Shown here: one piece after another, positions 35,584 to 36,933 of the stretch | Position numbering within the stretch: position 1 is the stretch's first letter | How the letters are laid out: each line of letters starts with the position of its first letter | Assembly (NCBI GenBank): GCA_964530085.1 | Contig: CAZGXX010000003.1 | Coordinates: forward strand, 210,864 to 274,863 | Length of the DNA stretch: 64,000 nt | Source: an uncultured Azospirillum sp. | GTDB lineage: Bacteria > Pseudomonadota > Alphaproteobacteria > Rickettsiales > UBA3002 | Reading direction: 5' to 3' | Position numbers and translations under genes: made by a program | The notes under the pieces: model-generated | What the model was told of the DNA's origin: nothing | What the model saw: only the letters and a program-made list of their open reading frames with translations | The model's database searches: none

Positions 35584-35615
35584 GTAACAAAATCTTAACC
35601 ATTGCCTGCTATACT
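35584..35615 (+). promoter_or_regulatory. module-B (CtrA-box-like) promoter: GTAACaaaatcTTAACCAT, 10 nt after the box, TATACT
   Basis: Half-sites at 35584-35588 and 35595-35599, with the TTAACCAT 8-mer present. The -10 TGCTATACT has its hexamer at 35610-35615. It is divergent from the module-A promoter 30 nt away. Confidence 0.65.
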
Positions 35616-35658
35616 GGCCTGAAGTAACAACGCCAACCCACCCGCCAGAGAGCAAACC

Positions 35659-36933
35659 ATGCCGATAAAAACCTATGTGCTGGTTGGATATGGCGATGAA
35701 TCTGCTGGACTGGAGGAATACTCCGAGCGGAAGGATGTGATTATCCTGCGCCCTAAGGCAGGTGAATCCATCGCCGAGGTCGCGGCGAAGATTCATGGCC
35801 CAGCGAATGTGATTCTGCAATGCCATGGTCTAGAAAATGGGACGTTTCGTTGGTACGAAGATGGAAATACTCCGCGAGCGCCCTACACCGAACTCTTCCA
35901 AGCCCTGCCGCGCAGTGGCATTCTCTCCATCACCCTCGGCAGTTGTTATGGCGGCACGGCGCAGCGGGCGGATATTTTAAGCGCCGCCCCGCCGGGCTGC
36001 ATCGTGCAATCCATCACCGGGGAGAAGACGCTGGGCAGTGGCAACGTCACCACCAAATTCGCGGCGGAAAGCCGATACCTCACCAATCCGACGGATTTAT
36101 TCCTCGAAGCGCTCGATAATTTTGATCCGGCGGCTTACAAAGATTATATGGAATATTGGAATAAACGCGATGGCACGCACGACATCACCGACCCGGACGC
36201 GGCGATGCCGCATATGATCGGCCTCGGCGGCAAGCCGCCACTCAGGATTGATATCAAGGCCGAGATGAAGCAGCTGACCCACGCCGACAAGGCAGCGATG
36301 GCACGCGCCATCGCCCGCGTGCAAGACCGGTTTGATACGGAATGTAATGTGACCTATGTCAACAAAAAGGGGCAGAAAGTTCTTTCTGACTATATGGAAC
36401 AATCCCTCGGCGACCCGGCGGAGAAGGCGCTGGATGGTTCCATCGCCACCATGGCCGCCAAGCTGCAAAAGGGCTATGTGCCGCAGAATGTGGACGAACG
36501 CAAACTGGCTTACGCCATCACCGCCGCCTATCTCGATGAATCCGGCACGCTACGGCAGCGGATGGAGAAACAACCGGGCTATGTGAACCCGCATGTGGAT
36601 TACGCCAAGGAAAATGCCGCCCATCCCGAGCTTCATGGCAACTATCGCTTCGTAAAGGCGCAGCAGGCCAAACGCCTCAATGAACTCGGCATTCATAACG
36701 CGGCGGAGCTGGAGCGTTACATCAAGGATGCCAATGCCGGAGAGTATTTTGGATTTTCTGGCAAGGGCATCGACGTGAAAGAGTTCAACAAAATCGTTGA
36801 GGCCGGGCGGCTCCTCGGCCAGCGCATGGTGGTGACGCAGGGCGAGCATGACAGCATCTCCCTACCTGATAGCGGGTTTAAAAGCACCATCAACGTCAAG
36901 CTCGACGACCATATCAAAGGCGGGCGGTATTAG
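35659..36933 (+). CDS. orphan protein with N-terminal caspase/CHAT-like His-Cys dyad (putative clan CD cysteine peptidase)
   Basis: NVILQCHG (His56) and ILSITLGSCYGG (Cys96) each follow a hydrophobic strand, about 40 aa apart. The roughly 300-aa C-terminal region is helical and unassigned. Confidence 0.7.
   Translation: MPIKTYVLVGYGDESAGLEEYSERKDVIILRPKAGESIAEVAAKIHGPANVILQCHGLENGTFRWYEDGNTPRAPYTELFQALPRSGILSITLGSCYGGTAQRADILSAAPPGCIVQSITGEKTLGSGNVTTKFAAESRYLTNPTDLFLEALDNFDPAAYKDYMEYWNKRDGTHDITDPDAAMPHMIGLGGKPPLRIDIKAEMKQLTHADKAAMARAIARVQDRFDTECNVTYVNKKGQKVLSDYMEQSLGDPAEKALDGSIATMAAKLQKGYVPQNVDERKLAYAITAAYLDESGTLRQRMEKQPGYVNPHVDYAKENAAHPELHGNYRFVKAQQAKRLNELGIHNAAELERYIKDANAGEYFGFSGKGIDVKEFNKIVEAGRLLGQRMVVTQGEHDSISLPDSGFKSTINVKLDDHIKGGRY

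Follow-up and report, generated by a model that had tools for sequence, protein, structure and literature searches.

What kind of protein is encoded by the gene at 35659-36933 (forward strand; 424 aa, stop codon included in the coordinates), and what turns this gene on? It lies in a 64-kb stretch of the genome of an uncultured Azospirillum sp., referred to below as the window. An earlier examination of the letters alone (the sequence-only reading) described an orphan gene with a caspase- or CHAT-like His-Cys dyad under a CtrA-type box. Our analysis suggests that the product is most likely a caspase-like cysteine protease and that CtrA, the master regulator of the cell cycle, probably activates its gene. 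The coding sequence starts at 35659; position 35584, given earlier as the start, is where the upstream box begins. The G+C content of the gene (56.1%) is close to that of the window (56.8%), and comparison with the orthologue in a close relative (locus L009) gives a ratio of nonsynonymous to synonymous substitution rates (dN/dS) of 0.28 at dS of 0.36. Given the native composition and the low dN/dS, the gene is real, native and subject to purifying selection.

Homologues exist, so the gene is no orphan: an initial search returned 22 homologues with 38-86% identity, and a profile search extended the set to 122 cluster representatives at 50% identity, 92 of them at E <= 1e-30. All of these proteins are named 'hypothetical protein' and nothing more, and the clusters that were looked up have one or two members each, originating from metagenomes or metagenome-assembled genomes (MAGs). 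Three homologue loci were found in species-representative genomes and seven in a metagenome scan; the three former belong to MAGs labelled 'uncultured Azospirillum sp.', 'Rickettsiales bacterium' and 'Alphaproteobacteria bacterium UBA6149'. No copy was found in the viral contigs, phage genomes and plasmids scanned. The gene product belongs to a chromosomally encoded family from uncultured Alphaproteobacteria that has no name so far.

The most conserved feature of this family is a pair of residues in the N-terminal part. Cys96 (codon 35944-35946, forward strand), the predicted nucleophile, occupies the sole invariant column (81/81 homologues) within the motif L[G..][SG]C[YF]GG. His56 (codon 35824-35826, forward strand), the predicted general base, is found in 80 of the 81 homologues within the motif ILQ[AC]HG, and the adjacent Gly57 in 77. 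In the window protein the two residues are embedded in NVILQCHG and ITLGSCYGG, respectively, with a spacing of 40 residues. NVILQCHG brings His56 two residues past the strand 49-54, and ILSITLGSCYGG brings Cys96 three residues past the strand 88-93. The identity, codon positions and spacing of the dyad are those given by the sequence-only reading, which had also made its assignment depend on the conservation of both residues in homologues, and this conservation is family-wide. Asp153 and, where strand 1 ends, Asp12/13 are each conserved in about 75% of the members; no other polar residue of the N-terminal domain matches His56 and Cys96.

The order of the two residues (His before Cys), their location after hydrophobic strands, and the His-Gly and (Ala/Ser/Gly)-Cys motifs are those of clan CD cysteine peptidases. 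We also take the strand-1 motif YVLIGxD and SC[YF]GG to resemble LIGINY and DSCHSG of metacaspases, and the acidic residue closing strand 1 presumably hints, weakly, at a preference for basic P1 residues as in metacaspases. Strands 3 and 4 run side by side in the caspase fold, so that His56 and Cys96, one at the end of each, would be brought together in space.

The structure was predicted with AlphaFold for the full-length protein and for residues 1-198, strands were assigned by DSSP, and the models were compared with PDB entries by Foldseek. The full-length model has a mean predicted local distance difference test score (pLDDT) of 88.1 and a predicted template modelling score (pTM) of 0.76; for the N-terminal α/β domain (residues 1-198, 35659-36252, forward strand), which is the predicted caspase-like (clan-CD-like) catalytic domain, these values are 92.7 and 0.90. 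Strands at 4-9, 27-30, 49-54, 88-93, 115-118 and 185-189 reproduce the alternation of strands and helices that had been read from the sequence. The best match of the N-terminal domain is caspase-4 (E 1.5e-3, probability 1.00, template modelling (TM) score for the query, TMq, 0.46). Caspase-7 (probability 0.99, TMq 0.50), caspase-11, procaspase-1 and metacaspase 9 are also among the top matches; all ranks from 1 to 13 are taken by caspases or metacaspases, rank 14 is the first with an unrelated fold, and clostripain comes lower down. The comparison with caspase-hemoglobinase folds that had been suggested earlier thus returns caspases, a metacaspase and clostripain as the best matches, weak as they are, and this ranking, at a best E-value of only 1.5e-3, points to the caspase/hemoglobinase α/β/α fold.

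The full-length model gave a more mixed picture, in which 6-phosphogluconate dehydrogenases were interspersed with clan CD enzymes (legumain proenzymes, C11 enzymes and caspases) and came out on top in the PDB and the viral library (E ~4e-3). Since 6-phosphogluconate dehydrogenases likewise combine an α/β domain with a helical one, the protein could be imagined as a Rossmann- or flavodoxin-like domain followed by a helical C-terminal domain, its Cys and His serving some other chemistry, metal binding or redox sensing. The weakness of every fold match and the lack of a sequence link to peptidases speak for such a possibility. When the N-terminal domain is taken alone, however, caspases stand above all Rossmann proteins by each of three measures, E-value, probability and TM-score (caspases: probability 0.93-1.00, TMq 0.41-0.50; Rossmann domains: TMq of only 0.33-0.39), and the alignment has no GxGxxG dinucleotide-binding motif. 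For these two reasons the dehydrogenase reading was rejected. Moreover, the best-conserved positions of the family are the strand-preceded His-Gly and small-residue-Cys motifs 40 residues apart, that is, the clan CD signature. We consider a non-caspase fold improbable. Sortases, YkuD, LRAT, PPPDE and isochorismatase-like hydrolases and class I amidotransferases, in which we take the fold or the residue order to be different, were considered and set aside as well; none of these folds was present among the fold matches. A clan-CD-like fold carrying a His-Cys dyad is most likely the right description of the modelled N-terminal domain and the best-supported one.

The second part of the question concerns expression. 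The sequence upstream of the gene at 35584-35602, GTAACAAAATCTTAACCAT, includes a CtrA-type box GTAA-N7-TTAAC (35584-35599, forward strand) which differs from TTAA-N7-TTAAC only in its first base (G instead of T). Its downstream half-site extends to the exact 8-mer TTAACCAT (35595-35602), and a -10-like hexamer TATACT (35610-35615, forward strand) follows 10 nt after the box, so the arrangement described in the sequence-only reading is there, with the one mismatch. Transcription would start near 35622, about 7 nt past TATACT, and the box would then have its 5' base at about -38. A purine-rich stretch AGAGAG (35647-35652, forward strand) located 6 nt before the ATG may serve as a ribosome-binding site. 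In Caulobacter crescentus, the sites of CtrA-activated promoters have their 5' base near -35 to -39 (PMC4287350; abstract of PMC11264516). In these promoters the TTAA-N7-TTAAC site replaces the -35 element; the window box, located near -35 relative to the putative start site, is similar in this respect and differs by the mismatch in its upstream half-site.

Comparison of homologue loci provides the main argument for this box. A box with no more than one mismatch is located at -61 to -103 from the start codon in 9 of 14 independent homologue loci, while 0.31 loci would be expected by locus-wide rates (P ~1e-13) and 0.85 by dinucleotide-preserving shuffles of the same upstream stretches (P ~6e-9). 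The scoring interval was chosen after a first look, which covered 260 nt upstream and had already found a site in 8 of 10 loci. The neighbours of the 14 scored loci are unrelated, and the position and architecture of the box are kept in front of distant homologues. At L016, where the protein is only 45% identical, the upstream region has the identical 16-mer box GTAACAAAATCTTAAC. In the close relative L009 the box is 100% conserved, and the intergenic alignment includes a stretch of about 130 nt with only a handful of differences, while dS of the gene is 0.36. The box, a gap of exactly 10 nt and a TAnAnT-like hexamer follow each other in the window and at L001, L004, L006, L008, L011, L013 and L020 (the L008 box has two mismatches, and the L020 hexamer is TATTCT). 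The promoter evidence is stronger than had been proposed from the window alone, and it suggests that CtrA binds at the box and probably switches the gene on.

Two perfect TTAA-N7-TTAAC boxes were noticed elsewhere in the window. One of them (24076-24091, forward strand) is followed by TATATT after 10 nt and precedes the open reading frame (ORF) 24147-24431 coding for 94 aa; the other (19653-19638, reverse strand) is followed by TATGAT after 9 nt and precedes the minus-strand ORF 19082-19588 coding for 168 aa. Neither product has a Pfam match. These are probably further CtrA-type promoters of this genome.

Downstream of the predicted catalytic domain, the protein has a conserved central domain (residues 199-305, 36253-36573, forward strand) composed of helices and a β-hairpin, with the motifs RVQxRFDT and EEKRIAYAITAAYLDESG conserved across the family. 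Most of the family profile matches extend to about position 310. The central domain has no family or PDB match. Of all parts of the protein it is the most similar to its counterpart in L009, one of the two closest orthologues being compared here with the other (92% amino acid identity, against 79% for the predicted catalytic domain; window 35659-36573 for both domains). The rest (residues 306-424, 36574-36930, forward strand) is a variable tail, of which two unrelated types are distinguished in the alignment; the type present in the window protein is common only to its closest relatives P0002-P0005. Pfam domains found in the tails of other members, out of the 81 scanned, are EF-hand (three), PG_binding_1 (two) and PG_binding_3 (one). 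PG_binding_1-like tails were seen in P0069 and P0020. The remaining 300 or so residues had initially been described as helical; there are indeed helices at 128-171, within the N-terminal domain, but residues 199-305 are a mixture of helices and a β-hairpin and residues 306-424 are the variable tail.

About 70 of the 81 members, including the window protein, have strand 1 at their very N-terminus and lack an export signal, and a cytoplasmic location of the protein is suggested because a signal peptide is missing in most members. A few distant members (P0064, encoded at L021 1965-3347, P0094, P0087 and P0047) have an N-terminal Sec-type signal peptide or membrane anchor.

Overall, we favour a model in which a CtrA~P-activated cytoplasmic enzyme of the caspase fold hydrolyses a specific peptide bond by means of Cys96 and His56, and would give it a probability of about 0.55. 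According to this model, the promoter lacks a normal -35 element and has a CtrA-type box in its place, with the 5' base near -38, so that phosphorylated CtrA would activate transcription and the protein would appear as part of a cell-cycle or developmental programme. Residues 1 to about 198 would fold like a clan CD (caspase-type) catalytic domain. His56 at the end of strand 3 would act as the general base and Cys96 at the end of the neighbouring strand 4 as the nucleophile, and the enzyme would cut a specific peptide bond of its substrate; peptidase chemistry is what the fold and the dyad would imply. The central domain 199-305, which travels with the catalytic domain, may bind the substrate or cap the active site and modulate access to it, and the variable tail would probably determine the partner or the location.

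Several observations weigh against this model. No peptidase family was found by Pfam in 23 members at E <= 10 or in 81 members at E <= 0.01, and PDB sequences gave no credible match to the protein itself or to the profiles of its full length and of its N-terminal domain. Alignment by hhalign to a caspase-3 profile reached a probability of 0.4-0.75%, which is not significant, although this profile was built from close caspase-3 orthologues only and is narrow (effective number of sequences, Neff, ~2.1). The structural matches are modest too: no Foldseek E-value is at or below 1e-3, the best for the N-terminal domain being 1.5e-3, and TM is only ~0.5. One of the 81 homologues, P0013, has Asp at the position of His56. 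The window has 10 boxes with no more than one mismatch where 5.2 are expected, a count reached in 10 of 100 shuffles and therefore not beyond chance, and no ctrA gene is located within the 64-kb window or the fetched homologue loci. Finally, location may differ within the family, considering the signal peptides and peptidoglycan-binding tails of a few distant members.

As for the box counts, the three TTAACCAT copies in the window (0.89 expected; 10 of 100 shuffles reach this count) do not exceed chance either, and the significance of the box comes from the comparison of homologue loci only, not from window counts. As for the database searches, a PDB match to HscB (E 0.015) was disregarded because it spans just 42 helical residues. 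In the greedy mode, hhalign placed His56 on His121 and Cys96 on Cys163 of caspase-3 in an alignment co-linear through the whole N-terminal domain. This alignment is not significant (P 0.075); it is consistent with the fold match and is no evidence on its own. By sequence and profile, the protein could not be assigned to Peptidase C14 (caspases and metacaspases, PF00656), and no Pfam, NCBIfam or PDB sequence match was found to CHAT (PF12770), C13, C11, gingipain C25 or the MARTX cysteine protease domain C80. The caspase/CHAT label of the sequence-only reading holds only at the level of fold and motif; no sequence link to Peptidase_C14, CHAT or C13 could be shown, and 'CHAT-like' as a description does not stand. 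The protein appears to represent a new family of clan-CD-like fold and not a member of C14, CHAT or C13.

The same fold could also serve a different chemistry. Ligation and transpeptidation are known within clan CD from legumain-type ligases and GPI transamidase, and an enzyme of this kind could act on peptide stems of the cell wall, by cleavage, transpeptidation or ligation, contributing to CtrA-timed remodelling of the envelope. The PG_binding_1 and PG_binding_3 tails of some members and the Sec-type signal peptides or membrane anchors of a few others suggest a possible role in the cell envelope for part of the family. Legumain-type peptide ligases are among the full-length fold matches, and at two loci the gene is close to a lytic transglycosylase gene; a rearranged region with the genes for lytic transglycosylase, UDG, RNase HII, DciA and ETF-QO is common to two homologues distant from the query. 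However, peptidoglycan-binding domains occur in only two or three of the 81 members, the majority without an export signal includes the window protein itself, and the gene forms no operon with the transglycosylase gene, nor is their proximity general. We know of no caspase-fold enzyme acting on the cell wall, which also counts against this explanation. On balance we regard it as unlikely, although it carries the most weight among the rivals, followed by a secreted effector, a Rossmann-like protein that is not a peptidase and a module linked to the neighbouring genes, in this order.

The possibility of a secreted effector, a protease directed against a eukaryotic host or a competitor, is brought up by the type IV effector RARP-2 of Rickettsia. 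RARP-2 and divergent RARP-2 proteins of Rickettsiales have an N-terminal protease-like domain which shows minimal similarity to clan CD and nevertheless a functional His/Cys active site (PMC11077975). Compared by description only, RARP-2 and the window family are both alphaproteobacterial and have an N-terminal protease-like domain and a variable C-terminal region, responsible for targeting in RARP-2; RARP-2 differs in having ankyrin repeats and a type IV secretion tail, neither of which is present in the window family. Besides this precedent of an active site that works despite a 'minimal analogy' to clan CD families (PMC11077975), an effector would be in line with the variable tails, some of them with EF-hands, with the origin of one homologue from a MAG labelled Rickettsiales, and with the genomic context. 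The gene is typically monocistronic and a singleton, surrounded by different housekeeping genes at each locus: propionyl-CoA carboxylase and ATP12 at one, and malate dehydrogenase and Rho, GreA, or TetR and Hsp33 at others. On the other hand, the gene has no associated secretion signal or secretion system and is absent from plasmids, phages and viral contigs. Local synteny is kept between two homologues that are 41% and 46% identical to the query, suggesting vertical inheritance. The genomes have 50-60% G+C and full central metabolism genes nearby, unlike those of obligate symbionts. We find a secreted effector improbable.

The immediate neighbours were the basis of another proposal. The gene is transcribed divergently from a glycine-zipper operon across an intergenic region of 161 bp (35498-35658), and it had been suggested that the protease works with the adjacent glycine-zipper membrane proteins, as a processing enzyme or an effector, or within a module for cell death or abortive infection. 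In favour of this, the shared region is nearly identical in L009, where the gene has the same neighbours. However, glycine-zipper genes adjoin the family gene only in the window and in L009; this adjacency is absent at all other homologue loci with called genes listed, where the neighbours differ from locus to locus. Scanning of the window protein and its four neighbours against Pfam, NCBIfam, PADLOC and PHROGs gave nothing meaningful: none of the five proteins has a PADLOC or PHROGs match, so, with no neighbour conserved across the loci either, membership in a known anti-phage defence system is not indicated, and the family was not found on a phage, plasmid or viral contig. Since the neighbourhoods differ at every locus, both the processing-enzyme and the abortive-infection ideas are unsupported, and we consider a functional link to the glycine-zipper proteins very improbable.

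The glycine-zipper genes moreover have a repeated promoter motif of their own. A TGTGA-N6-TGTGA direct repeat is located at 35537-35558, upstream of the CtrA-type box; both elements of this intergenic region had been recognised from the sequence, but they are separated by 25 nt and not by 30 nt. The repeat belongs to a 22-nt motif, TGTGAAG[G/T]TTTTGTGACAA, found at 34347-34368, 35537-35558, 43578-43599 and 43974-43995, where no copy would be expected by chance. The copies at 34347, 35537 and 43578 are positioned about 40-60 nt upstream of the starts of minus-strand ORFs of unknown function, which include two glycine-zipper genes and ORF 42740-43537; the copy at 43974 is located between two minus-strand genes. 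The four copies look like a small regulon under a response-regulator-type binding site. Since the repeat recurs near other minus-strand ORFs, it appears to be part of the regulon of the neighbours.

Some differences between the window and L009 were observed in passing. The L009 homologue P0003 (L009 2147-3541) has a C-terminal extension of 60 aa corresponding to the out-of-frame ORF that starts at 36936 in the window, and this extension represents read-through or a frameshift. In L009 the glycine-zipper genes (816-1863) also appear split into overlapping ORFs. Both features could result either from assembly errors or from decay in that genome. A threonine-dehydratase-like gene (37785-39314, forward strand), located in the window between the SpoU methylase and Ion_trans_2 genes, is missing in the otherwise syntenic L009, indicating an insertion or deletion between close relatives. 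The sole Rfam match in the window at the gathering threshold is 6S RNA (52041-52202, reverse strand; RF00013, 49.7 bits).

Returning to the caspase-like protease as the preferred reading, its similarity to clan CD as defined in MEROPS (C14, C13 legumain, C11 clostripain) includes the His-before-Cys order with each residue past a hydrophobic strand and about 40 residues between them, the His-Gly and small-residue-Cys-x-Gly motifs, the same order of strands and helices, and the best fold matches. At the same time, the window family differs from the known members in the absence of detectable sequence or profile similarity, with TM of only ~0.5, in a long insert of helices (128-171) that separates strands 5 and 6 of the window protein, and in the fusion to a family-specific central domain with variable tails. 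Unlike caspases, the window protein has no evident p20/p10 processing site. The succession of a caspase-fold domain and a helical domain resembles prolegumain, where the catalytic domain is followed by the helical C-terminal LSAM prodomain, and the full-length model matches the legumain proenzyme structures 5h0i, 5nij and 6l4x, albeit weakly (TM 0.25-0.27). There is no sequence similarity to prolegumain, and capping of the active site by the central domain of the window protein would be pure conjecture by analogy. Taken together, this is a real, conserved and uncharacterised family, new as a family, in its domain build and in its regulation, and of a known structural kind.

The comparison of loci removes the tempting but unsupported story of a protease acting with glycine-zipper proteins or in abortive infection. 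If the favoured model is true, the caspase-type clan gains a family that is covered by no current domain library and is found only in uncultured Alphaproteobacteria. As an unlikely extension of this model, we speculate that the protein may be an alphaproteobacterial caspase-fold 'executioner' protease hard-wired into the CtrA circuit as a timed switch for differentiation, division or programmed lysis, and that it could represent an undescribed bacterial branch of caspases and metacaspases in the lineage from which mitochondria arose.

A new clan-CD-like family is unsurprising in itself, while its conserved control by CtrA is a concrete and testable hypothesis. CtrA regulons are known mainly for genes of motility, division, DNA methylation and the envelope. 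If true, the model would tie this family to the best-studied bacterial cell-cycle regulator, and a conserved cysteine protease among the targets of CtrA would be a new output of its circuit.

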